From: Escherichia coli
Lineage (GTDB): Bacteria > Pseudomonadota > Gammaproteobacteria > Enterobacterales > Enterobacteriaceae
Length of the DNA: 64,000 bases
Assembly: GCF_044324785.1 (NCBI RefSeq)
Contig: NZ_CP172127.1
Strand: one strand, 5' to 3'
The notes beneath the pieces are model-generated. The model did no database searches and was not told where the DNA came from. It worked only from the letters and a program-made list of their open reading frames with translations. Both the position numbers and the translations under genes were made by a program. This document shows positions 8,799 to 38,314 of the stretch, piece by piece (the stretch's first letter is position 1; each line of letters begins with the position of its first letter).

Positions 8799-8813
8799 TC
8801 CGGCGTTTCGGCA

Positions 8814-9290
8814 TTAATCCTGGCGATCGTCTTTATGATCAAGGCGGTCGCGGTCATCATCCTTTCGCTGGTACTCACCATCAAAAGTATTACCGCCACC
8901 GGTCCCGGCGCTAAAACCGCCGCCTGGCATGCGAGAAAAGCGCAAATGCGGCATCAACTTCACAGTCAGATGCTTTTGCACCGGCGGTAATAAAAGCAGA
9001 AGACCGAGGAAGTCGGTGAAAAAGCCCGGTAATAAAAGCAGCAAACCGGCAATGATCAGCGAAACACTTTTAATCATCTCCGCCGCTGGGTTTTCACCTG
9101 CTGCCATTTTTTGCTGCATCAGCACGAAATTCTTAAAGCCCTGGTTACGTACCAGTGACATACCGATAACTGACGTGAATATAACCAGCACGAGGGTCAG
9201 CAATACCCCCAATACATGGGCAACCTGAATAAAGATTGAAATCTCAATATAGACATAAAGGAAAATGGCAATAAAAGGTAACCAGCGCAA
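8814..9290 (-). CDS. fxsA: inner membrane protein FxsA
   Basis: 158-aa ORF with N-terminal transmembrane segments and acidic C-terminus; K-12 synteny. Confidence 0.85.
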   Translation of the reverse strand: MRWLPFIAIFLYVYIEISIFIQVAHVLGVLLTLVLVIFTSVIGMSLVRNQGFKNFVLMQQKMAAGENPAAEMIKSVSLIIAGLLLLLPGFFTDFLGLLLLLPPVQKHLTVKLMPHLRFSRMPGGGFSAGTGGGNTFDGEYQRKDDDRDRLDHKDDRQD

Positions 9291-9626
9291 AGGTTTCTCC
9301 TGTAATAGCAGCCGGTTAAACCCGGCTACCTGAATGGGTTGCGAATCGCGTTCAGCTTATATTGTGGTCATTAGCAAAATTTCAAGATGTTTGCGCAACT
9401 ATTTTTGGTAGTAATCCCAAAGCGGTGATCTATTTCACAAATTAATAATTAAGGGGTAAAAACCGACACTTAAAGTGATCCAGATTACGGTAGAAATCCT
9501 CAAGCAGCATATGATCTCGGGTATTCGGTCGATGCAGGGGATAATCGTCGGTCGAAAAACATTCGAAACCACATATATTCTGTGTGTTTAAAGCAAATCA
9601 TTGGCAGCTTGAAAAAGAAGGTTCAC

Positions 9627-20208: not shown

Positions 20209-21486
20209 ATGAATTCTGCAAGTACGCATAAAAATCCCGATTTCTGGATTTTCGGTCTGTTCTTCTTTCTCTACTTTTTCATCATGGCAACCTGTTTTCC
20301 GTTTTTGCCTGTATGGCTGTCCGATGTGGTCGGACTGAGTAAAACGGATACAGGTATAGTCTTTTCATGTCTTTCTCTGTTTGCCATCAGTTTCCAGCCA
20401 TTGCTTGGGGTCATATCAGATCGCCTGGGACTGAAAAAAAACCTGATCTGGAGTATCAGCCTGTTACTTGTATTTTTCGCCCCCTTTTTTTTATATGTAT
20501 TTGCGCCCCTGCTGCGCTTCAATATCTGGGCAGGCGCACTGACTGGCGGTGTCTTTATTGGTTTTGTGTTTTCTGCAGGTGCCGGAGCTATTGAAGCTTA
20601 TATAGAGCGGGTCAGTCGCAGTCGTGGATTTGAATACGGTAAAGCGAGGATGTTCGGGTGTCTGGGCTGGGCGTTATGTGCGGCTATGGCTGGAATGCTT
20701 TTTAATGTCGATCCTTCTCTGGTTTTCTGGATGGGGTCAGTAAGCGCATTATTGTTGCTTCTTCTGTTGTTTCTGGCGCGCCCCAGTACCAGCCAGACGG
20801 CAATGGTTATGAATACACTGGGTGCCAATTCTTCCCTGATTTCGACCAGAATGGTCTTCAGCCTGTTTCGCATGCGTCAGATGTGGATGTTTGTTCTCTA
20901 CACGATTGGTGTGGCCTGTGTCTATGATGTATTTGATCAGCAGTTTGCCACATTTTTTCGTTCATTCTTTGACACTCCTCAGGCAGGAATAAAAGCATTC
21001 GGATTTGCTACCACTGCGGGGGAGATTTGTAATGCCATTATCATGTTCTGTACACCATGGATAATTCATCGCATTGGTGCCAAAAATACCCTGCTTGTTG
21101 CGGGGGGAATTATGACCATCCGCATTACCGGTTCTGCTTTTGCCACCACCGCGACAGAAGTGGTGATTCTGAAAATGCTTCACGCTCTTGAAGTTCCATT
21201 TTTGCTGGTTGGGGCGTTCAAATATATTACGGCAGTGTTTGACACCCGACTGTCAGCGACCGTTTATTTAATAGGTTTTCAGTTTTCCAAACAACTTGCT
21301 GCAATACTTCTCTCTACCTTTGCCGGCCACCTGTATGATCGTATGGGATTCCAGAATACGTATTTTGTGCTCGGGATGATTGCTCTGACTGTTACCGTGA
21401 TATCAGTTTTCACGCTGAGTTCTTCCCGCGGGAGCGTACACCCTTCTGTAGAAAAAGCCCCTGCAGCGCATTCGGAGATTAACTGA
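20209..21486 (+). CDS. rafB: raffinose permease (LacY-family MFS symporter)
   Basis: 425-aa product from MNSASTHKNPDFWIFGLFFFLYFFIMATCFPF...; RBS GAGGG upstream; overlaps the rafD start. Confidence 0.85.
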   Translation: MNSASTHKNPDFWIFGLFFFLYFFIMATCFPFLPVWLSDVVGLSKTDTGIVFSCLSLFAISFQPLLGVISDRLGLKKNLIWSISLLLVFFAPFFLYVFAPLLRFNIWAGALTGGVFIGFVFSAGAGAIEAYIERVSRSRGFEYGKARMFGCLGWALCAAMAGMLFNVDPSLVFWMGSVSALLLLLLLFLARPSTSQTAMVMNTLGANSSLISTRMVFSLFRMRQMWMFVLYTIGVACVYDVFDQQFATFFRSFFDTPQAGIKAFGFATTAGEICNAIIMFCTPWIIHRIGAKNTLLVAGGIMTIRITGSAFATTATEVVILKMLHALEVPFLLVGAFKYITAVFDTRLSATVYLIGFQFSKQLAAILLSTFAGHLYDRMGFQNTYFVLGMIALTVTVISVFTLSSSRGSVHPSVEKAPAAHSEIN

Positions 21487-22916
21487 TGAAACAGCGTCTT
21501 GCTTTGGCACAGTCTGCCCTTGAAAAACTTTGCGCACGTCGTGGTAATGCCTGGTACCCGATTTTTCATCTGGCTCCACCTGCCGGCTGGATGAATGATC
21601 CAAATGGCCTTATTTACTTCAATGGGCGTTACCATGCGTTCTTCCAGCATCATCCTGCAAGCGCATATCAGGGGCCAATGCACTGGGGGCATGCCACCAG
21701 TACCGACATGTTGCACTGGCAACACGAACCTGTCGCGCTGGCACCCGGAGATAAATATGATCGTGATGGCTGTTTTTCAGGGAGTGCCGTGGATGATGAT
21801 GGCGTGCTATCACTTATTTATACTGGTCATATTTGTCTCGATGATCGTGGTAATGACAGCATTATCCGTGAAGTACAGTGTCTGGCTACAAGTCATGATG
21901 GTATTCACTTTGAGAAGCAGGGCTGTGTGCTGACACCTCCGGAAGGTATAATGCATTTCCGTGATCCCAAAGTCTGGCACGAAGACGGCTCCTGGTGGAT
22001 GGTCATTGGTGCCCGGGACGCTTCTGACAATGGGCAAGTTCTGTTGTATCGCGGGACATCTTTGCGGGACTGGCATCTGGAGCATGTTCTTGCTCATTCC
22101 GCAGCCGGAAAAAGTTATATGTGGGAATGCCCCGATTTCTTCAGGTGTGGTAATTTTCACTGGCTGATGTTCTCACCACAGGGGATGCCCCCTTCCGGTT
22201 ATCGGTTCCGTAACCTTTTTCAGAGCGGTGTGTTGGCAGGGAGCTGGAAGCCTGGTTCTGTCTTTGCGCTGAAAGGGGGATTTGAAGAGCTGGATTATGG
22301 TCATGACTTTTATGCTCCACAGTCCATGCTGGCTGAGGACGGCAGGCGTATCATTATGGCATGGATGAATATGTGGGATTCACCCGTGCCCACCCGCAGT
22401 GAAGCCTGGGCAGGATGTCTGACGCTGCCCAGAGAGGTTTTTGAGCGCGATGGCCGGCTGTGCCAGCGACCTGTGCGTGAAGTCGAATCTCTGCGCAAAA
22501 AATGCCAGCCATTATCCCCTGTAAGGTTACAGGGTTTGCAATTACTGACCGAAAATGTACAGGCCGCAGAATTATTGGTGACGTGGCATACGGTTGACAG
22601 TCATGCGGAGCACTATGGCGTCCGCCTTGGAGACGGTCTGCGACTTTATGTGGATAATCAGGCCGGGCGACTGGTACTGTGGCGCTATTACCCTGAGGAA
22701 GGGTTGGATGGTTACCGCAGTGTTGAACTTCCTGATACAGAATATCTGACTCTTCGTATTTTCTTGGATCGTTCATCTGTTGAAGTGTTTGTTAACGATG
22801 GTGAGGCAACCTTATCAAGTCGTATTTATCCGCAAGCGGACTCGAGACAATTATCGTTATATGCCGCTCATGGCGATGCGATATTAACTGATGGCACTTT
22901 ATGGATGCTGACCTGA
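21486..22916 (+). CDS. rafD: raffinose invertase / sucrose-6-phosphate hydrolase-like (GH32)
   Basis: 476-aa ORF with GH32 motifs (WMNDPNGL, FRDPKV, WECPD). Confidence 0.85.
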   Translation: MKQRLALAQSALEKLCARRGNAWYPIFHLAPPAGWMNDPNGLIYFNGRYHAFFQHHPASAYQGPMHWGHATSTDMLHWQHEPVALAPGDKYDRDGCFSGSAVDDDGVLSLIYTGHICLDDRGNDSIIREVQCLATSHDGIHFEKQGCVLTPPEGIMHFRDPKVWHEDGSWWMVIGARDASDNGQVLLYRGTSLRDWHLEHVLAHSAAGKSYMWECPDFFRCGNFHWLMFSPQGMPPSGYRFRNLFQSGVLAGSWKPGSVFALKGGFEELDYGHDFYAPQSMLAEDGRRIIMAWMNMWDSPVPTRSEAWAGCLTLPREVFERDGRLCQRPVREVESLRKKCQPLSPVRLQGLQLLTENVQAAELLVTWHTVDSHAEHYGVRLGDGLRLYVDNQAGRLVLWRYYPEEGLDGYRSVELPDTEYLTLRIFLDRSSVEVFVNDGEATLSSRIYPQADSRQLSLYAAHGDAILTDGTLWMLT

Positions 22917-23110: not shown

Positions 23111-24505
23111 ATGAATAAGTTACTTTTGGGTTTATCTCTTTTTTTATTACTGGAATACAATGCGTGTGCAGCAAAAACAGGGGGGCTAACGCTTGAACAA
23201 AGAATGGCATTGCTGGAAGAACGCCTGGAAGCTGCAGAAAAAAGGGCGGAAAAAGCAGAAAGAATGTTAAAGAGTTTTGATATAGAACAACATTCTGAAA
23301 TACGTCAAATTAGTTCAGAGCAGAATAAAAAAGATGCTAACAGCTATGCAGTAGTTGAGTCAACAAAAGAAAAAACATCTTCTCCAGGTTTTCTGCTCTC
23401 TGGTTACAATGATTTGAAGTTTTATGGTGATGTGGAGTTTAATATAGATGCTGCCAGTAAACCCGGTCAGTTAGTAATGATAAGTTCCGGGGCGAACAGT
23501 GAGTCAGTGAATGAACGGTGGGACCTTAATGGCCGTATTCTATTAGGTTTTGACGGTACCCGTAAGCTTGATAATGGTTATTTCGCTGGATTTTCAGCAC
23601 AACCACTGGCGGATATGCACGGTTCAGTGAATATTGATGATGCATTATTCTTTTTTGGAAAAGATGACGAGTGGAAAGTGAAAGTCGGTCGTTTTGAAGC
23701 TTACGATATGTTCCCTCTAAATCAGGATACTTTCATTGAGTATTCCGGTAATACAGCTAATGATATTTATGCTGATGGCCGTGGTTATATCTATATGATG
23801 AAAGAGGGACGCGGTCGTTCTGACGCTGGTGGTAATTTCCTCATCAGTAAACAACTCGATAACTGGTATTTTGAGTTAAACACGTTACTTGAAGACGGAA
23901 CATCTTTATATAATAACGGTAATTATCATGGACGATATATGGAGCAGCAGAAAAATGTCGCTTATCTGCGCCCGGTAATTGCCTGGTCGCCAACGGAAGA
24001 ATTCACAGTCTCCGCAGCGATGGAAGCGAACGTGGTAAAAAATGCTTATGGCTATACCGATAATAAGGGGAATTTTGTCGATCAGTCCAATCGTTCCGGT
24101 TATGGTATTAGCATGACATGGAACGGTCTGAAAACAGATCCGGAAAATGGCATCGTGGTTACTCTTAATACCGCCTATTTGGATGCCAGTAATGAGAAAG
24201 ATTTCACTGCCAGTATTAATGCTCTGTGGAAACGTTTCGAACTGGGTTATATCTACGCACATAATAAGATTGATGAATTTAGTGGTGTCGTGTGTAATAA
24301 TGGTTGCTGGATTGATGGTGAAGGAATATACAACATTCACACCATTCATGCATCTTATCAGTTTGCTAATGTGATGGATATGGAGAACTTTAATATTTAC
24401 CTCGGGGCTTATTACTCAATTCTGGATAGTAACTGTAGATATAGTAATTGTGACATTACCGATGATCGTTACGGTGCCCGATTACGTTTCAAATACTTTT
24501 TTTGA
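23111..24505 (+). CDS. rafY: raffinose glycoporin (outer membrane)
   Basis: 464-aa ORF with signal peptide and aromatic-rich C-terminus ending in F, typical of outer-membrane beta-barrels; position after rafD. Confidence 0.7.
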   Translation: MNKLLLGLSLFLLLEYNACAAKTGGLTLEQRMALLEERLEAAEKRAEKAERMLKSFDIEQHSEIRQISSEQNKKDANSYAVVESTKEKTSSPGFLLSGYNDLKFYGDVEFNIDAASKPGQLVMISSGANSESVNERWDLNGRILLGFDGTRKLDNGYFAGFSAQPLADMHGSVNIDDALFFFGKDDEWKVKVGRFEAYDMFPLNQDTFIEYSGNTANDIYADGRGYIYMMKEGRGRSDAGGNFLISKQLDNWYFELNTLLEDGTSLYNNGNYHGRYMEQQKNVAYLRPVIAWSPTEEFTVSAAMEANVVKNAYGYTDNKGNFVDQSNRSGYGISMTWNGLKTDPENGIVVTLNTAYLDASNEKDFTASINALWKRFELGYIYAHNKIDEFSGVVCNNGCWIDGEGIYNIHTIHASYQFANVMDMENFNIYLGAYYSILDSNCRYSNCDITDDRYGARLRFKYFF

Positions 24506-25082: not shown

Positions 25083-25988
25083 CTATATTTCCAGACACCT
25101 GTTATCACTTAACCCATTACTGGTCCGCTGCCGCAGATATTCCCGTGGCGAGCGATAACCCAGCGCACTATGCGGATGCCATTCGTTATAATGCTCGAAC
25201 GCCTCTGCAAGGTTCTTTGCTGCCGTTAACCCGTCTGGTTTGGGCATGATACTGATGTAGTCACGCTTTATCGTTTTCACGAAGCTCTCTGCTATTCCGT
25301 TACTCTCCGGACTCCGCACCGCCGTGTTCTTCGGTTCAAGTCCCAACATCCGGGCGAACTGGCGTGTTTCATTAGCCCGGTAGCATGAACCATTATCCGT
25401 CAGCCACTCCACTGGAGACGACGGAAGATCGTTGCCGAAGCGGCGTTCCACCGCTCCTGGCATGACGTCCTGTACTGTTTCACTGTTGAAGCCGCCGGTA
25501 GTGACCGCCCAGTGCAGTGCCTCACGATCACAGCAGTCCAGCGCGAACGTGACACGCAGTCTCTCTCCGTTATCACAGCAGAACTCGAACCCGTCAGAGC
25601 ACCATCGCTGATTGCTTTCTTTCACGGCCACTCTGCCAGTATGTGCCCGTTTCGATGGCGGTACAGCGGTTTTTCGCTCAAGCAACAGCGCATTCTGGCG
25701 CATGATCCGGTAAACACGTTTGGCATTGATCGCAGGCATACCATCAAGTTCGGCCTGTCTGCGAAGCAGCGCCCATACCCGACGATAACCATACGTGGGC
25801 AGCTCTCCGATAACATGGTGTATACGGAGAAGCACATCCGTATCATCTGAGTGACGGCTGCGGCGACCATCTTTCCAGTCATCGGTTCGTCTGAGAATTA
25901 CGTGCAACTGCGCACGCGACACCCGGAGACAACGGCTGACTAAGCTTACTCCCCATCCCCGGGCAATAAGGGCGCGTGCGCTATCCAC
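25083..25988 (-). CDS. insD: IS2 transposase InsD (OrfB)
   Basis: 301-aa ORF with DDE integrase-core features, overlapping insC. Confidence 0.9.
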
Positions 25989-26311
25989 TTTTTTGCACGC
26001 CCGTATTCAACGGCTTCTTTAAGGAGTTCATTTTCCATCGTTTTTTTGCCGAGCAGGCGCTGGAGTTCTTTAATCTGCTTCATGGCAGCAGCAAGTTCAG
26101 AGGCAGGAACGACCTGCTCTCCTGCGGCCACAGCAGTAAGACTTCCCTCCTGGTATTGCTTGCGCCAGAGAAATAACTGGCTGGCTGCCACACCGTGTTG
26201 CCGGGCAACAAGGGAGACCGTCATTCCCGGTTCAAAACTCTGCTGAACAATAGCGATCTTTTCCTGTGTAGTACGCCGTCTGCGTTTCTCCGGTCCTAAG
26301 ACATCAATCAT
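25946..26311 (-). CDS. insC: IS2 transposase InsC (OrfA)
   Basis: [56 protein letters not shown]...; the ORF-track start at 26356 is an extension. Confidence 0.9.
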
Positions 26312-26562
26312 CTGCTCTCCAATGACTAGTCTAAAAACTAGTATTAAGACTATCACTTATTTAAGTGATATTGGTTGTCTGGAGATTCATGGGGCCAGTC
26401 TAGCAGATTATGGTGCGCAGTTATACAACAGCAGTAATGAGGAGTCTACTATTTCTCTTGTTATGCCAGATGCAATTGAATGGAACGGAAAGAATACGCC
26501 AAGACGGCAATACATGATAAAATATATTGCCGTATTTAAATATTAAAATTTATTTTTGTAGA

Positions 26563-27368: not shown

Positions 27369-27872
27369 TTATTGATAGTGTTTTATGTTCAGATAATGCC
27401 CGATGACTTTGTCATGCAGCTCCACCGATTTTGAGAACGACAGCGACTTCCGTCCCAGCCGTGCCAGGTGCTGCCTCAGATTCAGGTTATGCCGCTCAAT
27501 TCGCTGCGTATATCGCTTGCTGATTACGTGCAGCTTTCCCTTCAGGCGGGATTCATACAGCGGCCAGCCATCCGTCATCCATATCACCACGTCAAAGGGT
27601 GACAGCAGGCTCATAAGACGCCCCAGCGTCGCCATAGTGCGTTCACCGAATACGTGCGCAACAACCGTCTTCCGGAGACTGTCATACGCGTAAAACAGCC
27701 AGCGCTGGCGCGATTTAGCCCCGACATAGCCCCACTGTTCGTCCATTTCCGCGCAGACGATGACGTCACTGCCCGGCTGTATGCGCGAGGTTACCGACTG
27801 CGGCCTGAGTTTTTTAAGTGACGTAAAATCGTGTTGAGGCCAACGCCCATAATGCGTGCACTGGCACGACAT
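27369..27872 (-). CDS. insB: IS1 transposase InsB
   Basis: 167-aa ORF inside IS1. Confidence 0.9.
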
Positions 27873-28066
27873 CCGACGCCATTCATGGCCATATCAATGA
27901 TTTTCTGGTGCGTACCGGGTTGAGAGGCGGTGTAAGTGAACTGTAGTTGCCATGTTTTACGGCAATGAGAGCAGAGATAGCGCTGATGTCCGGCAGTGCT
28001 TTTGCCGTTACGCACCACGCCTTCAGGAGCGGAGCAGGAAGGACATCTGATGGAAATGGAAGCCAC
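27791..28066 (-). CDS. insA: IS1 protein InsA
   Basis: 91-aa [46 protein letters not shown]... with zinc-finger cysteines. Confidence 0.9.
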
Positions 28067-28329
28067 GCAAGCACCTTAAAATCACCATCATACACTAAAT
28101 CAGTAAGTTGGCACCATTACCTGACCAAGCTTCCTCTATTGCGGCACCTGATTGCATCAATATCGAAAGTGATAAGATCCTCTCACTAGCAGGGCATGAC
28201 AAGTGTAACTGCTGATTTGTTAGCCTGTTTTAAGTTTTTTAAGATCAATTATTTCTCATTTTTTGACTTTATTGCTAGCCGTGAAAATGCAAAGCCTATA
28301 GGATACAAAAATTACAATTTGTAGGTTTT

Positions 28330-28836
28330 GTGAGTCATATGAAGGCAACCAATATAGACCCTCAACTGCTTGAAAAAGCCACGAGTATCTTTGCTGAGTT
28401 GGGCTTACCTATTGAGCAGGCTATTAACGTCTTTTTAGCTAAATCCGTTCAAGCCAAAGGTTTTCCGTTTTCTGTTGCTCTTGAAAATGAAGTAGAGACA
28501 CGGGAAGTTGCACAAACGCAACACAATATCAGCAATGCAGAGATAACCGAAGCTATCCAAGACTTGGTTGAACATGCTCTACCACTGAGTGAAATAGAAA
28601 ACCTCACGCAGCTAACCTATTGTCGCAACATTTTTGGGTTGTCATTCCCCGTGCTCAAACTGGCTAAATCATCACGGCCAGAAGACATTCGCAGTGCAGC
28701 CAAAGATGCCAAAGAGCGAAACCGCTACTCCACCACTAAAGTGGCCCAGCGAGATGAAAAAACCTATGTTATTTGCACCCAATGGACCGACAGACATCGT
28801 TCTGCATTTTGCCGTTGGCAAGCCATCTTTAGCTAG
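28330..28836 (+). CDS. RelB/DinJ-like antitoxin-domain protein with C-terminal extension
   Basis: 168-aa ORF; N-terminal 50 aa resemble the DinJ/RelB ribbon-helix-helix (ATSIFAELGLPIEQAINVFLAKSVQAKGFPF); no toxin ORF adjacent. Confidence 0.5.
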   Translation: MSHMKATNIDPQLLEKATSIFAELGLPIEQAINVFLAKSVQAKGFPFSVALENEVETREVAQTQHNISNAEITEAIQDLVEHALPLSEIENLTQLTYCRNIFGLSFPVLKLAKSSRPEDIRSAAKDAKERNRYSTTKVAQRDEKTYVICTQWTDRHRSAFCRWQAIFS

Positions 28837-28902
28837 AACGCAAAATAATAACCAAACAATACACTGATTTTTTAACGATTTAACTTCATTTAGGTAGTAT
28901 CA

Positions 28903-30882
28903 ATGAACTTACAAGACAAAGAACAAAGCGCCAAACTCTCCAGTGCTATTTGGCGTATGGCAGATGATTTATGGGGTGATTTCAAACACACCGATTTTGC
29001 GCGGATTATCCTGCCATTTTTGCTACTGCGTCGTATTGAATGCGTGTTAGAACCCACCCGTGAGGAAGTTCGTAAGTTCTATCTGGCCGAAAAACAATCC
29101 GGCATAGACCTTGGTTTAGTGTTGCCAGAAATTGCGGGATTCGCCTTTTACAACACCAGTGAATATAGCCTAGAAACCTTAGGCGCGTCAGACACCGGCG
29201 ACAACCTAGAACACTACATCAGCCAGTTCAGCAAAAACGTTCGTACCATCTTTGATGAGTTTAAATTTGGTCAAACCATAGAAGATCTGGAAAAAGCCAA
29301 GTTGCTGTATCGCATGGTAAACCATTTTGCCAACCTCGACTTGCATCCTGATGTAGTGTCTGACCGCGTATTATCAGATGCTTATGAAGAGCTGATTCTA
29401 AAGTTCGCCAGTTCGGTTAATGAAAAGGCCGGGGAATTTATGACCCCGCGTGATGCCGTGCGTCTTGCCACCAAACTGGTGCTGGCGGCGGATGAAGATA
29501 TCTTTAGTGAAAAGGGTGTGATCCGCACCATCTATGACCCAACCTGTGGCACGGGCGGTTTCCTTTCCGATGCCATTAGCCAAATTGAAGAAATGGGCAG
29601 CAGCGCTAAAGTCGTGCCTTTTGGTCAAGAGCTCGACCCCGCGACCCATGCCATGGCGCTGACCAATATGATGATCCGCGGTTTTGATGCCAATAACATC
29701 AAGCAAGGCAACACCTTATCAGACGATCAGTTACGTGCCGACAAGTTTCACTACGGCCTTGCCAACCCGCCATTTGGCATTAAGTGGGAAAAAGCCAAGA
29801 AAGAAGTAGAACGTGAGCACAAACAGCTCAAATACGCCGGACGCTTTGGGCCAGGCCTGCCGAGTATTTCTGATGGTTCAATGCTGTTTTTACTGCACTT
29901 GGTATCAAAAATGGAAACGCCGGAAAATGGTGGTGGCCGAGTGGGTATAGTCCTTTCTGGCTCGCCACTGTTTAATGGCGATGCAGGCTCAGGCCCATCA
30001 GAAATCCGCCGTTGGCTGCTAGAACAAGACTTAGTCGAAGCGATTGTTGCCCTGCCAACCGATATGTTCTTCAACACCGGCATTGGCACCTACATCTGGA
30101 TTTTGACTAACCATAAAGAGCCAAGACGCAAGAATCAGGTGCAACTGATTAACTTGGCAGATATTTGGACTCCCATGCGTAAATCGCAAGGCGATAAGCG
30201 CAAGTACCTGAGTGATGAACAGATTGACGATATTGTCCGTGCGTACGATGGCTTTGAAGCCAGTGACAACTGTAAGATCTTCCAGACTACTGATTTTGCC
30301 TACCGTAAAGTCACCATTCAGCGTCCACTGCGTGCCAAACTAGATATTACCGCTGCGGGCATTGCTGCATTTGTGCAGCAAGATACGTTTAAAAAACTCA
30401 AACCAGAGCAACAAGCGGCATGGGTACAATACCTCACCGATAACCTTGGCCTTCAGCCTTATGAATGGGCACGTTTGGCGGTTAAGAAGAATAACAATAA
30501 GGGTGACTTTGGTAAGTGCTCAAAAGCACTGGCTACGGCCTTAACTGCGCACTTTGTAAAAATTGATCCGCAATTTGAGCCTGCACTGGATGAAAAAGGC
30601 CAAGTGATCGCCGACCCTAAACTCAAAGACACCGAAAGCATTCCTTTTGACCGCGACGTTGAAGATTACTTCGCACAAGAGGTGCTGCCACATGTACCGG
30701 ATGCCTTTATTGATCACTCAGTGCGTGATGAAAAAGACGGCGAAGTGGGCATTGTCGGTTATGAAATTAACTTTAACCGCTATTTCTACCAATACGTGCC
30801 ACCACGCGAGTTGAGTGTGATTGATCGTGAGCTAAAAGCATGTGAAGCGCGCATTCAGGCTCTGCTGAATGAGGTGGCGTAA
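28903..30882 (+). CDS. hsdM: type I restriction-modification system, DNA methyltransferase subunit
   Basis: 659-aa ORF with AdoMet motif DPTCGTGGFL and catalytic NPPFG; TAATG overlap with hsdS. Confidence 0.9.
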   Translation: MNLQDKEQSAKLSSAIWRMADDLWGDFKHTDFARIILPFLLLRRIECVLEPTREEVRKFYLAEKQSGIDLGLVLPEIAGFAFYNTSEYSLETLGASDTGDNLEHYISQFSKNVRTIFDEFKFGQTIEDLEKAKLLYRMVNHFANLDLHPDVVSDRVLSDAYEELILKFASSVNEKAGEFMTPRDAVRLATKLVLAADEDIFSEKGVIRTIYDPTCGTGGFLSDAISQIEEMGSSAKVVPFGQELDPATHAMALTNMMIRGFDANNIKQGNTLSDDQLRADKFHYGLANPPFGIKWEKAKKEVEREHKQLKYAGRFGPGLPSISDGSMLFLLHLVSKMETPENGGGRVGIVLSGSPLFNGDAGSGPSEIRRWLLEQDLVEAIVALPTDMFFNTGIGTYIWILTNHKEPRRKNQVQLINLADIWTPMRKSQGDKRKYLSDEQIDDIVRAYDGFEASDNCKIFQTTDFAYRKVTIQRPLRAKLDITAAGIAAFVQQDTFKKLKPEQQAAWVQYLTDNLGLQPYEWARLAVKKNNNKGDFGKCSKALATALTAHFVKIDPQFEPALDEKGQVIADPKLKDTESIPFDRDVEDYFAQEVLPHVPDAFIDHSVRDEKDGEVGIVGYEINFNRYFYQYVPPRELSVIDRELKACEARIQALLNEVA

Positions 30883-32168
30883 TGAATGCTGGCAACATAG
30901 TAGATGCTTTCGTATCTGACTCGAAATGGAACTCAGTACCAGCTAAACGTTTATTTACGAGTAGCAAAGAAATCAATCAAGGAATGAAAGAATCTAATCG
31001 TCTTGCACTAACAATGAAAGGTGTCATAAACCGCTCGTTAGACGATTTACAAGGACTTCAATCTTCTGATTACTCTGTTTATCAGATTTTTGAAAAAGAT
31101 GACTTAGTTTTTAAGCTCATAGATCTTGAAAATATAAAGACTAGCCGAGTGGGGATTGTGCATGAACGAGGAATAATGAGCCCTGCATACATCCGTGTTT
31201 CAGCGAGTTCAAATAGCATCTACCCAAGGTTCTATTACTGGTACTTTTTTGCTCTATACCTAACCAATATTTATAACAAACTGGGTGGAGGAGTTCGTCA
31301 GAACCTAACAGCTGGTGATCTTTTAGAAATACCTGTTCCACTGATTGATATTTCATTACAGAAGCAGGTTAGCACATTCCTTGATCGCGAAACCCAGCGC
31401 ATCGACAGTCTGATCGAGGAAAAGCAGACCTTTATTAAGCTGCTCAAAGAAAAACGCCAAGCACTGATCAGCCATGTGGTCACAAAGGGGCTCTATCCCA
31501 ATGTGGAGATGCAGGACTCTGGCATCGAGTGGATTGGGCAAGTGCCGAAGCATTGGGAAGTCAAAAAGATAAAGCATATTTGCTCCAACTTTATGTATGG
31601 AACCTCTCAAGACTGTAACCAGTCTGATGTTGGCTATCCTGTTCTCAGGATACCAAACATCAAGAGTACCAATGTTGATTTTGAAGATCTCAAATATGCA
31701 AATATCAGTGATGTTGATGCTTTAACTTATCTTTTATCAAGAGGCGACATTTTAGTCATCAGAACTAACGGTAACCCTAATCTGGTCGGCCAAAGCGCGC
31801 TTTTTGATTCAAATGGGCAGTATTTATTTGCGTCGTACCTAATAAAGTTAACACCAAAGCAAGGAGTGGATACTAGCTTCTTAGTGGAAGCGATGAACTC
31901 ACTATCTGTTCGTCAAGCATTAACATTTCAGTCAAGAACATCGGTAGGTAACTACAACCTGAGCATTCCTTCACTAGCTAATACAAGTATTGCTATCCCA
32001 CCAATTGATGAGCAAAAGACAATAACGAATTACTTGAGTGCAGCAACGATAAACATTGATTTACTGATTCAAGAGACTGATAAATCGATTGATCTTCTAA
32101 AAGAACACCGCACATCGCTGATCAACGCGGCTGTCACAGGAAAAATAGACGTCAGGGAGGCGGTGTAA
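30882..32168 (+). CDS. hsdS: type I restriction-modification system, specificity subunit
   Basis: 428-aa ORF with two-TRD architecture and conserved central and C-terminal repeats (SLIEEKQTFIKLLKEKRQALISHVVTKG / LLKEHRTSLINAAVTGKIDV). Confidence 0.88.
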   Translation: MNAGNIVDAFVSDSKWNSVPAKRLFTSSKEINQGMKESNRLALTMKGVINRSLDDLQGLQSSDYSVYQIFEKDDLVFKLIDLENIKTSRVGIVHERGIMSPAYIRVSASSNSIYPRFYYWYFFALYLTNIYNKLGGGVRQNLTAGDLLEIPVPLIDISLQKQVSTFLDRETQRIDSLIEEKQTFIKLLKEKRQALISHVVTKGLYPNVEMQDSGIEWIGQVPKHWEVKKIKHICSNFMYGTSQDCNQSDVGYPVLRIPNIKSTNVDFEDLKYANISDVDALTYLLSRGDILVIRTNGNPNLVGQSALFDSNGQYLFASYLIKLTPKQGVDTSFLVEAMNSLSVRQALTFQSRTSVGNYNLSIPSLANTSIAIPPIDEQKTITNYLSAATINIDLLIQETDKSIDLLKEHRTSLINAAVTGKIDVREAV

Positions 32169-35100
32169 TGGCTGCACATCATGAAGTGCATTTTGAACAA
32201 TATATTACCGAGCAGTTGGTGAACAATGGCTGGAAAGAAGGCCATTCCTGCCACTATGACCAGCAACGCGCCCTTTACCCGCAAGATGTCATGGATTGGG
32301 TAAAGGCCACCCAGCCAGATGCCTGGCACAAACTGAATAAACTGCATGGTGTGAATGCCGAGCAGGTGCTGTTGGAGCGTTTGGAAAAAGCCCTCTCTTC
32401 CCACAAAGCTGGCAGTAAAACAGGTGGCACCATTAATGTGCTGCGTAAAGGCTTTACCATTGCAGGTTGCGGCACGATTGCCATGGGCCAACGCAAACCC
32501 GAAGATGCGCGCAATGAAGAGCGTATAGCCCGTTATGAGCACAACATTTTGCGCGTGGTGCGCCAACTGAAATATTGCCCGACTCGCGAGTGGGAAATTG
32601 ACTTGGTGTTCTTTATCAACGGTCTACCCGTTGCCACCGCCGAGCTAAAAACCGATTTTACCCAGTCGCTAGAATCGGCGATTGCGCAGTACAAAGAGGA
32701 TCGTCTGCCCGTTGACCCAAAAACCAAGCGTAAAGAGCCGCTGTTAACCTTTAAACGCGGTGCAGTGGTACATTTTGCCATGTCTGATACAGAAATCGCC
32801 ATGGCGACCAAACTGGCGGGAGAAAATACCTATTTTCTGCCCTTCAATAAAGGCCATGATGGTTCTACCTCTGATTTGCCCGTACACATCAACTTGCCGG
32901 GTGAAGATGGAGAGTATCCGGTCAGCTATTTTTGGCAAGAAATTGCCCAAAAAGATAATTGGCTACGCATTTTCTACAGCTTTGTGTATGTCGAAACCAA
33001 AGAGGTTGCCGATAGCAATGGCAAGGTTGAGCGTAAGGAAACACAGATTTTTCCGCGTTATCATCAGTTAGCCGCAGTCAACAAGATGATTGATGATGCC
33101 CGCCAGAACGGCGCAGGCATGCAGTATCTTTGTGAGCACAGCGCCGGTTCGGGAAAAACCTCTACCATAGCCTGGACGGCCCATGATTTGATTCGTTTAC
33201 GCAGCACCGATGGTAAAGCGGTCTTTAAATCAGTGATCATTGTGACCGACCGCACCGTGCTGGATTCGCAGTTGCAAGATGCGGTGCAACAGCTGGATCA
33301 TCAATATGGGGTGATTAAGGTGATTGATCGCGAAAAGAGCAGCGAGTCGAAATCAAAACAGCTGACTGAAGCGCTATTGACTGGCACGCCGATCATTGTA
33401 GTGACGATTCAAACCTTCCCATATGCGTTAGAAGCGATTCTGACCAATCAATCTTTGGCACAAAGTAACTTTGCGGTGATCATCGATGAAGCACACACCT
33501 CGCAAACAGGCTCTACAGCCAAAGGGTTACGCGCAGCGCTTACTCTAAACCTTAGCCCTCAAGAGTTGGAGCAAATGAGCATTGAGGACATTCTTACTAA
33601 GGTGCAAGAAGCGCGCGCCATGCCCAAGAACGTTTCGCACTTTGCTTTTACGGCAACACCCAAGCACAGCACCAAGATGTTGTTTGGCCGCCCGAAAGAC
33701 CCTAACCAACCAGTGTCAGATGACAATCTTCCTGAATCGTTCCACCTCTACACCCAACGTCAGGCCATTGATGAGGGTTTTATTCTTGATGTGCTGGAGA
33801 ATTACACCCACTACGATACAGCCTACAAAATTGGTGAGAACAATCTGGATGAGAAGCGCGTAGACAGCAAACAAGCTCGCCGCGCGTTGGCGCGCTGGAT
33901 GTCACTGCACCCAACCACGGTCAGCCAAAAAGTCGAATTTATTATTAAGCACTTCAAGGCCAATATCGCTCACCTACTGGAAGGTGAAGCCAAAGCCATG
34001 GTGGTCACATCGGGCAGGCCACAGGCGGTGAAATACAAGCTTGCTTTTGATAAATACATTAAAAAGCATGGTATTGAAGGTATCCAAGCCTTGGTTGCCT
34101 TCTCGGGCAAAGTCCCCGGCAAAGATTTGGGTGATGAAGACAGCCAAGACCCGCTAGAAATTGATTTCGATAAAGAGTACACCGAGTACAACTTAAACCC
34201 AGACACGCACGGGGCTGACCTGCGCCATGAGTTTGAGAAAACCGAATATCGCGTCATGTTAGTCGCCAACAAGTTCCAAACGGGCTTTAATCAACCAAAA
34301 CTGGTTGCCATGTATTTGGATAAGAAAATATCCGATGTAGAAGCGGTGCAAACGCTGTCTCGCCTAAACCGCACCTATCCAGGCAAAGACACAACCTTCG
34401 TGATTGATTTTGTTAACGATCCACAAACCATTCTCAATGCGTTCAAAAAGTACGACAAAGGCGCGCAGCTTAATGAAGTGCAAGATGTGAACGTCATCTA
34501 TGACATCAAAGATATTTTGGATGAACAGAACATATACAACCATCAAGATTTAGAGTTGTTTAAGCAAGCGCGTGGTAAATCGATTCTCGGCCAATCACCT
34601 GACAAAAAGTCACACGCGCACAAGAAACTGCTAGCTGCCACACAACGCCCTACCGATGTGTTCAACGTTAAGCTCAAAGAGCTGGTTGATGCTGCAAACC
34701 ATTGGGATCAGCAATACAACAAAGCGCACCTTGCGGGTGATGAAAAAGCGGCGAACTACGCAGAATCTCAGCGCAGTGATTTCACCAAGCAGCGCGAAGC
34801 ACTAATGCGTTTTAAGTCAGATTTAGCTCGATTTGTGAAGCACTATAGCTATATGGCGCAATTGATTGAGTTTGGTGATCCTGAACTGGAAAACTTTGCC
34901 GCGTTTGCTCATTTGCTATCACGTCGATTGAAAGGGGTAACACCAGAAAACATCGATCTCAGTGCACTGGTACTAGAAAAATTCAAAATCAAATACGACA
35001 AAGAGCCGCTTCCAGAAGCGTTTAATCAGGTACTTGAACCTATCCGCCCCAACTATAACGACCCTGCGGATCGTGAACAGGCATTTCTTGCCGATATCAT

Positions 35101-35404
35101 TCGCCGCCTAAACGAACTGTTTGGCGATGTCGGCGACGAACCCGGTCGCCGAAACTTTGCCAACGGTACTATTACGCGTGTCACCCAAAATCCAATTGTG
35201 GTTGAGCAGATAGAAAAGCACGACAAGTCGATTGCCCTCAAAGGCGACTTGCCGCAAGCGGTGAAGCAAGCCGTTGTGCAGGCTCTGCTGAAAGAAGGTG
35301 ATATAGCCCGAACGCTACTCAAAGACCCACAAGTTATGGCAAGTTATGTTGAGTTGATTTTTGACATGATGAAGCAAGGTGCAGAACAGGCGGCGGTGAA
35401 ATAA
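32168..35404 (+). CDS. hsdR: type I restriction-modification system, restriction endonuclease/helicase subunit
   Basis: 1078-aa ORF with Walker A (SAGSGKT), DEAH-like VIIDEAH and helicase motifs; TAATG overlaps on both sides. Confidence 0.9.
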   Translation: MAAHHEVHFEQYITEQLVNNGWKEGHSCHYDQQRALYPQDVMDWVKATQPDAWHKLNKLHGVNAEQVLLERLEKALSSHKAGSKTGGTINVLRKGFTIAGCGTIAMGQRKPEDARNEERIARYEHNILRVVRQLKYCPTREWEIDLVFFINGLPVATAELKTDFTQSLESAIAQYKEDRLPVDPKTKRKEPLLTFKRGAVVHFAMSDTEIAMATKLAGENTYFLPFNKGHDGSTSDLPVHINLPGEDGEYPVSYFWQEIAQKDNWLRIFYSFVYVETKEVADSNGKVERKETQIFPRYHQLAAVNKMIDDARQNGAGMQYLCEHSAGSGKTSTIAWTAHDLIRLRSTDGKAVFKSVIIVTDRTVLDSQLQDAVQQLDHQYGVIKVIDREKSSESKSKQLTEALLTGTPIIVVTIQTFPYALEAILTNQSLAQSNFAVIIDEAHTSQTGSTAKGLRAALTLNLSPQELEQMSIEDILTKVQEARAMPKNVSHFAFTATPKHSTKMLFGRPKDPNQPVSDDNLPESFHLYTQRQAIDEGFILDVLENYTHYDTAYKIGENNLDEKRVDSKQARRALARWMSLHPTTVSQKVEFIIKHFKANIAHLLEGEAKAMVVTSGRPQAVKYKLAFDKYIKKHGIEGIQALVAFSGKVPGKDLGDEDSQDPLEIDFDKEYTEYNLNPDTHGADLRHEFEKTEYRVMLVANKFQTGFNQPKLVAMYLDKKISDVEAVQTLSRLNRTYPGKDTTFVIDFVNDPQTILNAFKKYDKGAQLNEVQDVNVIYDIKDILDEQNIYNHQDLELFKQARGKSILGQSPDKKSHAHKKLLAATQRPTDVFNVKLKELVDAANHWDQQYNKAHLAGDEKAANYAESQRSDFTKQREALMRFKSDLARFVKHYSYMAQLIEFGDPELENFAAFAHLLSRRLKGVTPENIDLSALVLEKFKIKYDKEPLPEAFNQVLEPIRPNYNDPADREQAFLADIIRRLNELFGDVGDEPGRRNFANGTITRVTQNPIVVEQIEKHDKSIALKGDLPQAVKQAVVQALLKEGDIARTLLKDPQVMASYVELIFDMMKQGAEQAAVK

Positions 35405-35958
35405 TGAATACTGCGTTTCGGGTTTTACTTACGTTCAATGCAACATCACTACTAGTGATTATCTTTGCGGTACAAAAAGGGTACTCACTCGGATATTTCT
35501 TTGGTGGTTTCGCTTGCTTCGATTGGATAGCAGCACTTCCGAACGCAGTATCATATTTACTCTATTTTCTTATCCCTGTTTTATCGACTGGATTGAGTAT
35601 TTGGCTGAGTAAGTATTTGGGTAAAGACGATTTTAAGGCGGGTGAAGTAGCGAGTATTGAGCATGCCAATAACAGCTTCCTACCAAGTTATTTGGGTTAC
35701 TTTTTCGTGGCGTTGAGCATTGGTAACTGGGAGACATTGTGGTTTGTTTATGGCGTTTTGTTTGTTTTTACTCTCTTATCGCAAGCACTCTACTTTAACC
35801 CATTGTTTTTACTGTTTGGTTATGAGTTTTATAACATTACAACCAAAAACGGAACGGCCATTTTCCTTATTAGCCGAGAGCGCTACAAGAAGCCAGATGA
35901 CATCGAAATATCATTGGCTTATCGAATCAATAATTACACATTTATCGAGCGAGGATAA
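35404..35958 (+). CDS. uncharacterised predicted membrane protein (about 4 TM), candidate defence-system component
   Basis: 184-aa ORF with four hydrophobic segments; start codon overlaps the hsdR stop (TAATG) and its own stop overlaps the next gene. Confidence 0.6.
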   Translation: MNTAFRVLLTFNATSLLVIIFAVQKGYSLGYFFGGFACFDWIAALPNAVSYLLYFLIPVLSTGLSIWLSKYLGKDDFKAGEVASIEHANNSFLPSYLGYFFVALSIGNWETLWFVYGVLFVFTLLSQALYFNPLFLLFGYEFYNITTKNGTAIFLISRERYKKPDDIEISLAYRINNYTFIERG

Positions 35959-36800
35959 TGATGGACCATGTACTGGCACATATAAAAACTAGAGCAAAAA
36001 AACGCATTTTCAAATTGGTTTCTGATCAATCTCTTTTTGATACCGTCACAATCGACTTAAATGCCTGTATTCCATACAATCCAGACCATAACCTTGACGA
36101 AGACTCATGGTTTAAAATTGAAGACTTTAGTCAAAAAGAGTTTTGTATTGAACTGCTAAAAAAAGACTATGATTCAAAAGACTACGATGACTTAACCAAA
36201 GATAACTTCGCCAAGATCGCCTACTTATTTGCAATTCAAGGTAATGATTTTTACTTTCAAAAAATCACTCCAAGCCTATTCGTAAAACGCAAAACGCTTG
36301 TTTTTGGTGAAGCCGCAGAAATTGAGAAGAGCCAAACACGTTTAGTAATAAACGCCTTACCTGATGCAGTGTACTTCAAAGTGGCCGATACCTTGATATT
36401 CAAAAATCTGGCAACGATCTCGAGCATTTTTAAAGGTATCGATGAGTTGTACAAGGAAGCAACAAAAGAAGAAGTTGAGCAGTTTTTAGATGCACAGTTT
36501 ATAGAGTTGGGTAATGACTACAACGTAGATAGCGTCTCAAAACCTAATAGAAAACGTATTGGCCTTGCTATGGCAACACTTGATGCGATGTCTGCTGACG
36601 ATAAAGCTAACATGCTTGATTATATCGACGGTTACTGCGGTGAACAGAAGCTGAAATTCGATAAAGAAAATCAGAAGTTTGAAATATCTAATGACGATGA
36701 GTTGAAGTTACTGCTTTATGGCATTGAACAACGCTTCTATACGACCCCGTTTGGCAAAGAAAAAAGGCTCGCTAACTCTGTAACCGCTATGGATAAATAA
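35958..36800 (+). CDS. uncharacterised 280-aa soluble protein, candidate defence-system component
   Basis: translationally coupled to the upstream membrane-protein gene (TAATG); AT-rich; no motif recognised by eye. Confidence 0.6.
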   Translation: MMDHVLAHIKTRAKKRIFKLVSDQSLFDTVTIDLNACIPYNPDHNLDEDSWFKIEDFSQKEFCIELLKKDYDSKDYDDLTKDNFAKIAYLFAIQGNDFYFQKITPSLFVKRKTLVFGEAAEIEKSQTRLVINALPDAVYFKVADTLIFKNLATISSIFKGIDELYKEATKEEVEQFLDAQFIELGNDYNVDSVSKPNRKRIGLAMATLDAMSADDKANMLDYIDGYCGEQKLKFDKENQKFEISNDDELKLLLYGIEQRFYTTPFGKEKRLANSVTAMDK

Positions 36801-36820
36801 TAGCCCATTATCAGTAACAT

Positions 36821-37870
36821 ATGAAGGTTGATTCAATGGCCGATAACATCCCACAAGCTCCTCAAGGTGAGTTTGTTCTTTTCACCAGTGCTGATGGTCA
36901 AACCCGCGTTGAGTGTCGTTTTGAGTCTGACACCTTGTGGCTTTCTCAGGCTGCAATGGCAGAGCTTTATCAAGTTAGCTCTCAAGCAATCACCCAACAC
37001 GTAAAAGCTGTCTATTCTGAAGAAGAGCTTGAGCAAATTTCAACTTGTAAGGATTACTTACAAGTTCAACTGGAAGGTGGCAGAGAAGTAAAGCGAAGCA
37101 TTCGTCACTACAGTCTTCCGGTTATTCTTGCAGTAGGATACCGAGTTCGCTCAACACGTGGCACCCAGTTCCGCCAATGGGCAACCAGAATGTTGCAAGA
37201 ATACCTAATCAAAGGATTCGTCATGGATGACGAGCGCCTGAAAAATCCGCCCATTGGCCATTCTGCTGTGCCAGATTACTTTGATGAAATGCTGGAACGC
37301 ATTCGTGATATCCGAGCTAGTGAGCGTCGCGTTTATCTGCGAGTCAAAGAAATCTTTACCATGGCTGCTGATTACGAGCCATCTAACCAAGAGACCAACC
37401 GCTTCTTCCAAACCATTCAGAATAAGCTGCATTATGCTTGTACGCATATGACGGCTGCTGAGCTTATCGCCAGCCGTGTGGATGCCAGTAAGCCGGATAT
37501 GGGCTTAACCAGCTATAAAGGCGATGAAGTGCGCAAGACAGACGTTACTGTTGCCAAGAACTATTTGCGTGAAGACGAAATCAAAGAGCTTAATCGCATC
37601 GTCAATATGTGGCTCGACTTTGCTGAAGACCAAGCACTGCGTCGCAAGCAGGTATTTTTACAGGACTGGGCCGATAAGCTTGACCAGTTCTTGAGTTTTA
37701 ACGATAGAGATGTATTAAACGGTGCAGGAAAAATCTCCAAGAAAGACGCTGATGACAAAGCGAAATTGGAGTTTGACCGCTTTGCCCAGCAGCGCCGTCG
37801 TTTAAAAGAAGCCGAAGGCGCACGGGCCAATATCGCAGCCCTCAAGGCCATACTAAAAAAAGATAAATAG
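36821..37870 (+). CDS. RhuM-family virulence/defence-island protein
   Basis: 349-aa ORF; N-terminal region (FTSADGQTRVECRFESDTLWLSQAAMAELYQVSSQAITQHVKAVY...VAYRVRSTRGTQFRQWATRMLQEYLIKGF) is typical of the RhuM family. Confidence 0.7.
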   Translation: MKVDSMADNIPQAPQGEFVLFTSADGQTRVECRFESDTLWLSQAAMAELYQVSSQAITQHVKAVYSEEELEQISTCKDYLQVQLEGGREVKRSIRHYSLPVILAVGYRVRSTRGTQFRQWATRMLQEYLIKGFVMDDERLKNPPIGHSAVPDYFDEMLERIRDIRASERRVYLRVKEIFTMAADYEPSNQETNRFFQTIQNKLHYACTHMTAAELIASRVDASKPDMGLTSYKGDEVRKTDVTVAKNYLREDEIKELNRIVNMWLDFAEDQALRRKQVFLQDWADKLDQFLSFNDRDVLNGAGKISKKDADDKAKLEFDRFAQQRRRLKEAEGARANIAALKAILKKDK

Positions 37871-37927
37871 CCGATATAGTACAGCCCTGATCTCTAATGA
37901 GTTGAGGGCTGTGTTGTAAGATCATAA

Positions 37928-38314
37928 CTATAAAGGATTATCCATCTTAAAATCGTCGATATCGCCTGTCATTTTGAATAGATTGGTGTCATTCCAACGG
38001 CACAGTTGTCTAACCCGCATTAGATTTGAGTTGGCTCTGCGGATTATTGAGAAAGCATCTTCAACAGCAGTAATCACCGATTTTTCCCAATCTTGTGCTC
38101 GGGTAAAGGTGCTTTGTGAATAGCGATAATTGCCCTCACGGGGGAGGTAATGGCTGATCACCTGGTATTTGTCAGAATTCTTTTTAGGTTTAAACTCGTT
38201 GTAAACCCAGAAAATTTCGAGTTTTTTGTTTCTTTGCCTTACACGACAACCAAAATGACCTGGGTAGCCTTCAGAGTTTTTACCTCTATGTGCAACGTTG
38301 TTCAGCCAGAACAA
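37928..38314 (-). CDS. hypothetical protein (start uncertain)
   Basis: 128-aa AT-rich ORF between the RhuM gene and an IS3-family element. Confidence 0.35.
   Translation of the reverse strand: MFWLNNVAHRGKNSEGYPGHFGCRVRQRNKKLEIFWVYNEFKPKKNSDKYQVISHYLPREGNYRYSQSTFTRAQDWEKSVITAVEDAFSIIRRANSNLMRVRQLCRWNDTNLFKMTGDIDDFKMDNPL

Follow-up and report, generated by a model that had tools for sequence, protein, structure and literature searches.

The stretch of Escherichia coli DNA analysed here, called the window below, is 64,000 nucleotides long (contig NZ_CP172127.1). The feature under study is an open reading frame on its + strand, from 28330 to 28836, for which a protein of 168 amino acids had been predicted. 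The frame is present and has this length if it is read from the GTG at 28330; the length itself is better revised, since the ATG at 28339 is the start used in RefSeq entry WP_000648433.1 and an equivalent methionine opens almost all homologues. Translation from this better-supported start to the stop codon at 28836 gives 165 amino acids, and the GTG falls within a conserved palindrome that appears to belong to the control region. The gene stands first in a row of co-oriented defence genes and is therefore referred to as the leader. Its product combines an N-terminal ribbon-helix-helix (RHH) domain of the RelB/DinJ type with a C-terminal domain that we designate X, and the family is accordingly called DinJ-X. 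The features of the locus are as follows:

28246-28338, + strand: upstream part of the portable leader unit (promoter and putative operator), delimited by nucleotide homology to loci with other cargo
28276-28281, + strand: weak -35-like hexamer TAGCCG, three of six positions matched, 17 bp upstream of the -10-like hexamer
28299-28304, + strand: -10-like hexamer TAGGAT, sharing one base with the first half-site of the putative operator; TAnnAT in 12 of 16 loci
28304-28332, + strand: putative operator with four half-sites, TACAA (28304-28308), TACAA (28313-28317), TTGTA (28319-28323) and TTGTG (28328-28332)
28339-28476, + strand: RelB/DinJ-type RHH domain, residues 1-46, with matches in Pfam, in NCBIfam and to DinJ structures
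28477-28524, + strand: flexible linker, residues 47-62, of variable length, with pLDDT below 50 at residues 47-60 and 23% pairwise identity
28525-28836, + strand: domain X, residues 63-165, and the stop codon; alpha/beta, with no described relative
28837-28902, + strand: leader-hsdM spacer of 66 bp, free of terminator-like sites and of operator copies
28903-35404, + strand: type I restriction-modification (R-M) genes hsdM (28903-30882), hsdS (30882-32168) and hsdR (32168-35404), as annotated in RefSeq, with overlapping stop and start codons
35404-36800, + strand: Kiwa genes kwaA (35404-35958) and kwaB (35958-36800), chained to hsdR by overlapping codons
36821-37870, + strand: rhuM-family gene, the last of the cassette; PADLOC candidate system PDC-S05, E 8e-167

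The two Kiwa proteins were recognised by PADLOC with E 9.3e-16 (KwaA) and 7.1e-14 (KwaB). In E. coli S30, which is 100% identical over the query, the island carrying the gene adjoins tRNA-Leu (leuX). The 5' part of the island holds, in this order, an integrase gene, a phosphoethanolamine-transferase gene, an outer-membrane-protein gene and an IS1 element (ending at about 28123), after which the leader begins; on the other side, 3' of the rhuM-family gene, lie a mobI(A/C)-like gene and IS3 elements. The leader is carried by 76 of 5426 complete E. coli genomes, on the chromosome in every case, with at least 99% identity across all 76 carriers and 100% identity in the 20 listed of these 76. Full-length homologues with 50-90% identity occur in Vibrio, Photobacterium, Shewanella, Aeromonas, Pectobacterium, Dickeya and Lonsdalea. 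Among phage records none encodes a DinJ-X protein, and among plasmid records only two do. Since dN/dS amounts to 0.02-0.17 in the RHH domain and in domain X alike, the leader gene is not decaying, and both domains are under purifying selection. Our literature search, in which subscription journals were thinly covered, found no paper on the DinJ-X protein or on domain X.

What follows the leader differs widely between hosts. In all 17 loci compared it is the first gene and lies on the same strand as the next one, from which it is separated by anything from a 10-nt overlap to a gap of 95 bp in 16 of them; in the remaining locus the gap is 532 bp and holds a scar ORF, a fragment of hsdM. The combination of type I R-M, Kiwa and RhuM is found in the E. 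coli window, in V. vulnificus and in two other Vibrio (L018, L022 and L027 besides the window). A second kind of cargo is Hma-like, with the order SNF2 helicase, DUF4391, type III methyltransferase (MTase_III), in some cases HEC-01, and Res; it occurs at loci L002-5, L009-13, L017, L025-26 and L031, in V. parahaemolyticus, V. rhizosphaerae, Photobacterium, Shewanella, Lonsdalea and a metagenomic lineage. Other leaders precede HEC-03 and an RNA ligase (Aeromonas, L006), PDC-S06 followed by Septu-like genes (Parashewanella, L023), a different hsdM (Shewanella, L024), or RhuM alone (Dickeya, L019).

The N-terminal domain was originally read as a DinJ/RelB RHH domain, and this is borne out by Pfam: RelB (PF04221) matches residues 7-70 of the 168-residue form with E 2.6e-5 and a score of 24.5 bits, which clears the gathering score of 22.4. 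The NCBIfam model TIGR02384 (RelB_DinJ) matches with E 1.7e-10 and 41 bits, under its cut-off of 45.65. A profile of 28 family members, searched against solved structures, found only DinJ (4q2u, 4ml0 and 9lew; E 3e-3 to 5e-3), residues 3-47 of the family aligning with residues 9-53 of DinJ. The RHH assignment is therefore correct: the relationship is real but modest in score, and distant. Within the family the two helices of the domain show a mean pairwise identity of 68%, against 34% for its beta-strand, a segment of four to six residues that is the least conserved folded part of the protein. In RHH proteins this strand is usually the element that reads the bases.

The absence of a cognate toxin, which had likewise been proposed, holds at every level at which it was examined. 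A tblastn search of the 64-kb window with YafQ, RelE and YoeB returned chance matches only (E > 0.3). The flanks are full: with IS1 ending at about 28123 and hsdM starting at 28903, there is no free space for a toxin gene. All 17 related loci are devoid of a conserved small partner ORF or toxin neighbour. The family thus keeps an N-terminal RHH domain that matches RelB/DinJ profiles and has neither a toxin partner nor an extended or disordered, toxin-wrapping C-terminus. RefSeq labels WP_000648433.1 a RelB/DinJ antitoxin; for the protein encoded at 28339-28836 this name is a mis-annotation.

The same data bear on the view that the protein is an ordinary antitoxin orphaned by toxin loss, or a regulator of island excision or transfer, and has nothing to do with the defence genes. 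Apart from the RefSeq name, this view can draw on the many copies that sit in small integrative islands beside integrase, AlpA or primase genes, or in a GMT island. It is hard to reconcile with the toxin neighbour being found in none of the 17 loci, with a conserved folded domain in place of the toxin-binding tail, and with the low dN/dS (0.02-0.17). The copies in Aeromonas and Dickeya, moreover, have no integrase within 8 kb, and the gene always abuts the cargo and never the mobility genes. We regard it as highly improbable that the protein is such a remnant or island regulator.

A likely control site lies directly before the gene. When the 100 nt preceding the start codon are aligned for 15 loci, the TACAA and TTGT half-sites are invariant and the DNA upstream of them diverges. 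The layout [TACAA]N3-4[TACAA]N1-4[TTGTA]N2-4[TTGT(A/G/T)] occurs in most of 16 loci, its first base coinciding with the final base of the -10-like hexamer; between the first half-site and the ATG there are 33-38 nt in 15 of these loci and 44 nt in the remaining one. A core of three half-sites was present in seven of seven lineages, including one plasmid locus left out of its definition, and occurred 11 times in 700,000 shuffled 100-nt regions, i.e., 1.6e-5 per shuffled 100 nt. Within the window taken alone the core motif is statistically unremarkable; its significance derives from its conservation across loci. The candidate -35 element at 28276-28281 has counterparts in relatives (TCGCCA, TTGCCA) that match the consensus at four to five of six positions, with a spacing of mostly 17 bp and 16-18 bp overall. 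A consensus promoter scan called no + strand promoter in the region; given this, and the weak -35 (3/6) in the window, the promoter assignment rests on the cross-locus conservation of TAnnAT.

A binding site had been expected elsewhere, in the hsdM promoter gap at 28837-28902. This expectation was not supported, because the single exact copy of TACAANTTGTA in the window lies at 28313 (the sole match with one mismatch, at 37039, is unrelated). The likely site is therefore the one at 28304-28332, before the regulator's own start. The 66-bp spacer between leader and hsdM is conserved only among closely related type I R-M loci. Since neither a terminator, nor an operator copy, nor a clear promoter was seen between the leader and the next gene, one promoter is probably shared by the leader and its cargo. 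In the relatives the leader and the gene behind it adjoin or overlap. In E. coli the 66-bp gap before hsdM may hold an unrecognised internal promoter. In this window IS1 lies 215 bp upstream and could contribute read-through transcription.

In loci with different cargo, nucleotide homology with the window starts at 28246 in Parashewanella, at 28249 in Dickeya and at 28256 in Shewanella, and it ends at 28832 or 28833, at the leader stop codon, running 36 bp past the stop in Dickeya. The Dickeya sequence matches 28249-28872 and then goes straight on to 36825-37873 (rhuM), and so is without 28873-36824, the 7.95-kb hsdMSR-kwaAB block. Scars of former neighbours are visible elsewhere: the 5' end of rhuM and the 3' end of hsdR in Parashewanella, and an N-terminal fragment of HsdM in the Shewanella locus L024. 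As judged from these junctions, promoter, putative operator and gene are shown to travel as one unit of about 590 bp, which appears to have been recombined before at least five unrelated defence cargos. The palindrome was considered as the site of cassette recombination and rejected as unlikely, because the homology breaks off some 60 bp before it on one side and at the stop codon, or shortly beyond, on the other.

The junction in Dickeya also invites another proposal, namely that the leader is an antitoxin or immunity partner of RhuM, that X neutralises RhuM, and that type I R-M and Kiwa became embedded between the two members of the pair. The direct joining of leader and rhuM, with window positions 28873-36824 missing, would fit, as would the position of rhuM at the end of all E. 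coli and Vibrio cassettes and the rhuM 5' scar in Parashewanella; the nesting of defence genes within other systems has been documented (bioRxiv 10.1101/2024.01.29.577857; PMC12255303). However, complete islands with a leader and no rhuM exist in Aeromonas (between nuoN and purL) and on a P. damselae plasmid with an Hma-like operon, and X also occurs alone or on effectors with unrelated partners. Furthermore, the toxicity of RhuM is not established, and a sequence search found no solved relative of it. A partnership with RhuM seems to us quite improbable.

The part of the protein that had been taken for a C-terminal extension is, according to structure prediction, a separate and compactly folded domain. 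In the AlphaFold2 model of the full-length protein residues 47-60 are disordered and residues 62-165 are confidently placed. Domain X modelled alone, on a 50-sequence alignment that included remote homologues, reached a pLDDT of 97.5 and a pTM of 0.88; its predicted fold runs through three helices, a strand, a further helix, a beta-hairpin and a last helix. For X, neither the protein nor a 22-member alignment of its C-terminal domain gave a match in Pfam, NCBIfam or PHROGs; ten stand-alone X members gave no match in Pfam, sequence and profile searches of the PDB were negative for X, and Foldseek against the PDB gave no match, every TM-score being below 0.26. A profile search of 1.84 billion representative proteins, on the other hand, placed X in 369 clusters (50% identity) at E <= 1e-3. 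The broad consensus of the domain reads KIG..V..L...L...EI..L...Y(C/S)K..FGI..PVLK...D..G..RY(Y/W)....YL.C.QW.ER.R..F..W.

From the best 147 proteins of this search we read the architectures in which X occurs; they are of four kinds, and X stands at the C-terminal end in about 80% of these proteins. Some consist of X alone (about 100 amino acids). Others, of about 170 amino acids, carry an N-terminal RelB/DinJ RHH, a VapB-like RHH, Phd/YefM (10 proteins) or HTH_17 (7 proteins). X is also fused to HNH, TIR, HEPN_Swt1, KAP NTPase, McrB-like AAA_5, AAA_15, HSDR_N_2, DUF3427 and DUF6946. The KAP NTPase in such a fusion is similar to PifA and QatA. The fourth kind is an unannotated 237-residue protein of the IncC plasmid pKAZ2, made up of an HNH-like domain and X. 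On the evidence of these searches X is a widespread, previously undescribed domain that is present on defence effectors, too. PADLOC reported no known defence system next to the Phd-X and HTH_17-X genes (few and short loci), and the Phd-X alignment had no hit in viral contigs. The role of defence leader is accordingly indicated for the DinJ-X family, where it was shown at the level of gene order, and is not extended to the distant Phd-X and HTH_17-X proteins.

X is distributed in a manner reminiscent of the WYL domain, which points to a role in input or targeting. As it is found both on other small DNA-binding domains and on defence effectors, we propose, with less certainty than for the regulator itself, that X is an input module or a second module for contact with nucleic acid. 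A bolder version, that X is a widespread sensing or nucleic-acid-reading fold of bacterial immunity, deployed in the way WYL is, we put forward as a tentative and still rather doubtful idea. Were it true, X joined to RHH, Phd or HTH would convert a cue from phage or DNA into transcription of a defence operon, X on HNH, TIR, HEPN, KAP or McrB-like modules would trigger or target the effectors directly, and the expression of type I R-M, Kiwa and RhuM at the present locus would be conditional on such a cue, e.g., a phage product or the condition of the DNA.

Fusion to HNH, TIR, HEPN, KAP and AAA_5 modules is a distribution typical of adaptor domains, and X might instead be a homotypic docking domain of the effector-associated type, the leader protein serving as a structural subunit or adaptor that recruits effectors to defence complexes. 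Homotypic docking is at odds with the finding of exactly one X per locus: when the window and 13 loci were searched in all six frames with an HMM, no second X domain turned up besides that of the leader. The cargos, for their part, have no protein in common on which X could dock, and the RHH domain together with the conserved putative operator indicates DNA binding. We give very little credence to a docking role for the leader and retain that of a DNA-binding regulator.

Whether X itself touches DNA is a different matter. Conservation of X equals that of the RHH helices, and the C-terminal two-thirds of the domain are basic, with 15 K/R against 7 D/E. A basic surface, a weak likeness to DNA binders and a variable RHH strand facing an invariant operator make direct contact of X with DNA possible, and as the strand is short and variable (34%) and the half-sites are invariant, the RHH domain is perhaps not the sole or main reader of the site. 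These traits can be carried further, to a two-module reader like SeqA in which the RHH domain mainly dimerises or oligomerises and X recognises either the TACAA repeats or some condition of the DNA (methylation, foreign DNA), coupling this to cargo expression. Several traits are in keeping with such a reader: the conservation of X at the level of the RHH helices, which the RHH strand does not reach, the basic C-terminal part of X, and the arrangement of RHH-like domain, flexible linker and C-terminal domain, as in SeqA. So is the placement of X N-terminal of the McrB-like AAA_5 module and adjoining HNH domains. Spots beside McrB-like AAA_5 and HNH modules are where restriction enzymes usually hold their DNA readers. 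The fusions to TIR, HEPN and KAP NTPase, however, would suit a general sensor equally well, and no TACAA repeats were found upstream of the Phd-X and HTH_17-X genes. Nor does homology come to its aid: the X profile aligned to SeqA by hhalign with a probability of 0.7%, BLASTP of a member that looked like SeqA_N produced no alignment, and the window protein shows no homology to SeqA_C. Membership of the SeqA family was rejected on these grounds, and the likeness serves at most as a faint lead. A reader of this kind we consider unlikely.

The explanation that we hold to be probable is that the DinJ-X protein is an autorepressing two-domain transcription factor heading a defence operon. In our analysis the gene is the first, co-oriented gene abutting or overlapping several unrelated defence systems, and at the sequence level a conserved site overlaps its promoter. 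The protein would retain a DinJ/RelB antitoxin's DNA-binding half, the toxin-binding tail having given way to the folded domain X. Dimers formed through the RHH domain would bind the four TACAA/TTGTA half-sites, which extend from the final base of the -10-like hexamer across the predicted transcription start near 28311, and binding there would therefore repress the protein's own promoter. One shared promoter would drive hsdMSR, kwaAB and rhuM. We infer that by binding the palindrome and repressing itself the protein determines how strongly the co-transcribed defence genes are expressed; the outcome would be a low, buffered expression of potentially self-toxic functions, and the buffering probably applies during establishment in a new host as well. 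The original prediction of a repurposed regulator or fusion protein, rather than a conventional antitoxin, is thus supported by the RHH domain, the missing toxin, domain X, the first position of the gene and the palindrome. Of the suggested control of the R-M operon, the regulatory part agrees with first position and palindrome, and the specificity for R-M does not stand, the unit heading at least five unrelated cargos.

How defence systems are kept silent and switched on is a live question. To our knowledge only a few families of defence regulators have been recognised: C proteins, BrxR/CapW, CapH/CapP, CapK/CapS and RptR. DinJ-X would add a family unrelated to these. Because the unit of about 590 bp is naturally placed before at least five cargos, it lends itself to direct testing and might serve as a portable control element. 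A ligand of X could explain the triggering of a whole set of nuclease, TIR, HEPN and NTPase defence systems. For annotation, calls of 'orphan antitoxin' beside defence operons merit re-examination.

Four known groups of regulators invite comparison with the window protein. With the DinJ/RelB antitoxins (DinJ-YafQ, 4q2u/4ml0) it shares the N-terminal RHH domain, including the 'LPF' segment after helix 2, as well as the position as first gene of an operon with a palindromic site, here a putative operator, in its own promoter. It differs from them in having no toxin gene and large defence operons downstream, and in carrying a linker and a globular domain of 103 residues where the antitoxins have their toxin-wrapping C-terminus. 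The C proteins are thought to time the expression of restriction genes during establishment. Like them, the window protein is proposed to be a small autogenous regulator encoded upstream of, and co-transcribed with, restriction genes; unlike them, it consists of RHH plus an added domain, while C proteins have an Xre-type HTH, act on C-boxes, and both activate and repress. A gene of the C family lies upstream of the hsdMSR operon of Mycoplasma gallisepticum (PMC12707154).

BrxR/CapW are regulators of the wHTH-WYL type that control defence operons, among them those of BREX and CBASS (PMC9122588). They resemble the DinJ-X protein in joining a DNA-binding domain to a second domain that is found on defence proteins, too, and in being promiscuous leaders of unrelated systems. 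In fold they differ, the window protein giving no wHTH, WYL or WCX match in Pfam, and their genes are usually divergent or separate units, whereas the window gene is co-oriented with its cargo and abuts it. RptR, the RMS-proximal transcriptional regulator of EPEC (PDB 9R2Z), is a 79-residue four-helix repressor whose gene is the opening ORF of a type I R-M/DarTG2 island; its targets are direct repeats that contain the 6-bp palindrome TAGCTA and overlap the -10 box, and it precedes non-R-M modules as well (PMC12255303). The two have in common: first ORF of a type I R-M island with a second defence system, autorepression (only proposed for the window protein), repeated short sites over the -10 box, conservation together with the site across Gammaproteobacteria, and occurrence ahead of non-R-M modules. 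RptR is nevertheless a single domain that binds TAGCTA, whereas the window protein has RHH plus an extra domain and putative TACAA/TTGTA repeats, and PDB sequence and family-profile searches gave no match to 9R2Z. With homology found neither to wHTH-WYL-WCX proteins, nor to RptR (9R2Z), nor to Xre-type C proteins, the best reading of these comparisons is that the DinJ-X protein is functionally like RptR, BrxR/CapW and the C proteins, yet unrelated to them.

In the series hsdM, hsdS, hsdR, kwaA and kwaB of the window (28903-36800), the stop codon of each gene overlaps the start codon of the next, at 30882, 32168, 35404 and 35958. From these overlaps, translation of Kiwa (kwaAB) appears to be coupled to that of the type I R-M genes, so that Kiwa would not be a separate unit. 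A second 'anti-phage protein KwaB' is present in the RefSeq annotation of the same island, about 6 kb past rhuM (window ca. 43.1-44 kb; 29994-30901 of locus L001, - strand); this would place two Kiwa systems within one leuX island.

The content of the cassette behind the leader gene (encoding the DinJ/RelB-like protein with C-terminal domain X) differs between related loci. In Dickeya fangzhongdai (L019 8540-8584) the leader directly adjoins rhuM, and the entire hsdMSR-kwaAB block (window 28873-36824) is missing; judging from this comparison with the window, the block was either inserted between leader and rhuM or deleted from that place. Parashewanella (L023 13046-13286) retains pieces homologous to the 5' end of rhuM and the 3' end of hsdR behind a PDC-S06 gene, and in Shewanella (L024 10807-10986) the leader is followed first by an ORF for a 59-aa N-terminal fragment of HsdM and then by a different hsdM, of 716 aa. 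Both remnants look like scars of cargo replacement.

Upstream of the leader and of the island core, the window holds the following features:
21486-22916, glycoside-hydrolase-like ORF, upstream of the island core
23111-24505, porin-like ORF, upstream of the island core
25083-26356, IS3-family transposase ORFs, upstream of the island core
27369-28123, IS1 copy, 215 bp upstream of the leader ATG
Strain S30 has a truncated integrase fragment ahead of IS1. Whatever originally lay upstream of the leader may have been lost or exchanged through the IS1 insertion, which could also add outward transcription. In the V. parahaemolyticus-type (Hma-like) loci L002, L025 and L017, a distinct conserved block, GGATAGCAA, takes the place of the fourth half-site of the putative operator before the leader ATG.

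Domain X is also found on the IncC plasmid pKAZ2 (KR827391), where an unannotated ORF of 237 aa (8770-9483) contains a region with an HNH-like Cys/His motif and has an X domain at its C-terminus; its identity to the leader protein is 28.5% across 94% of its length.

The gene after rhuM in the window is:
37928-38314, - strand, mobI(A/C)-like gene (RefSeq name)
Related islands are located at trmE in V. vulnificus (with integrase, AlpA and primase), at yicC in Shewanella (L011), and, on a P. damselae plasmid, within a gamma-mobile-trio (GMT) island. The leader and its cargo appear to be moved as cargo by small mobilisable islands.
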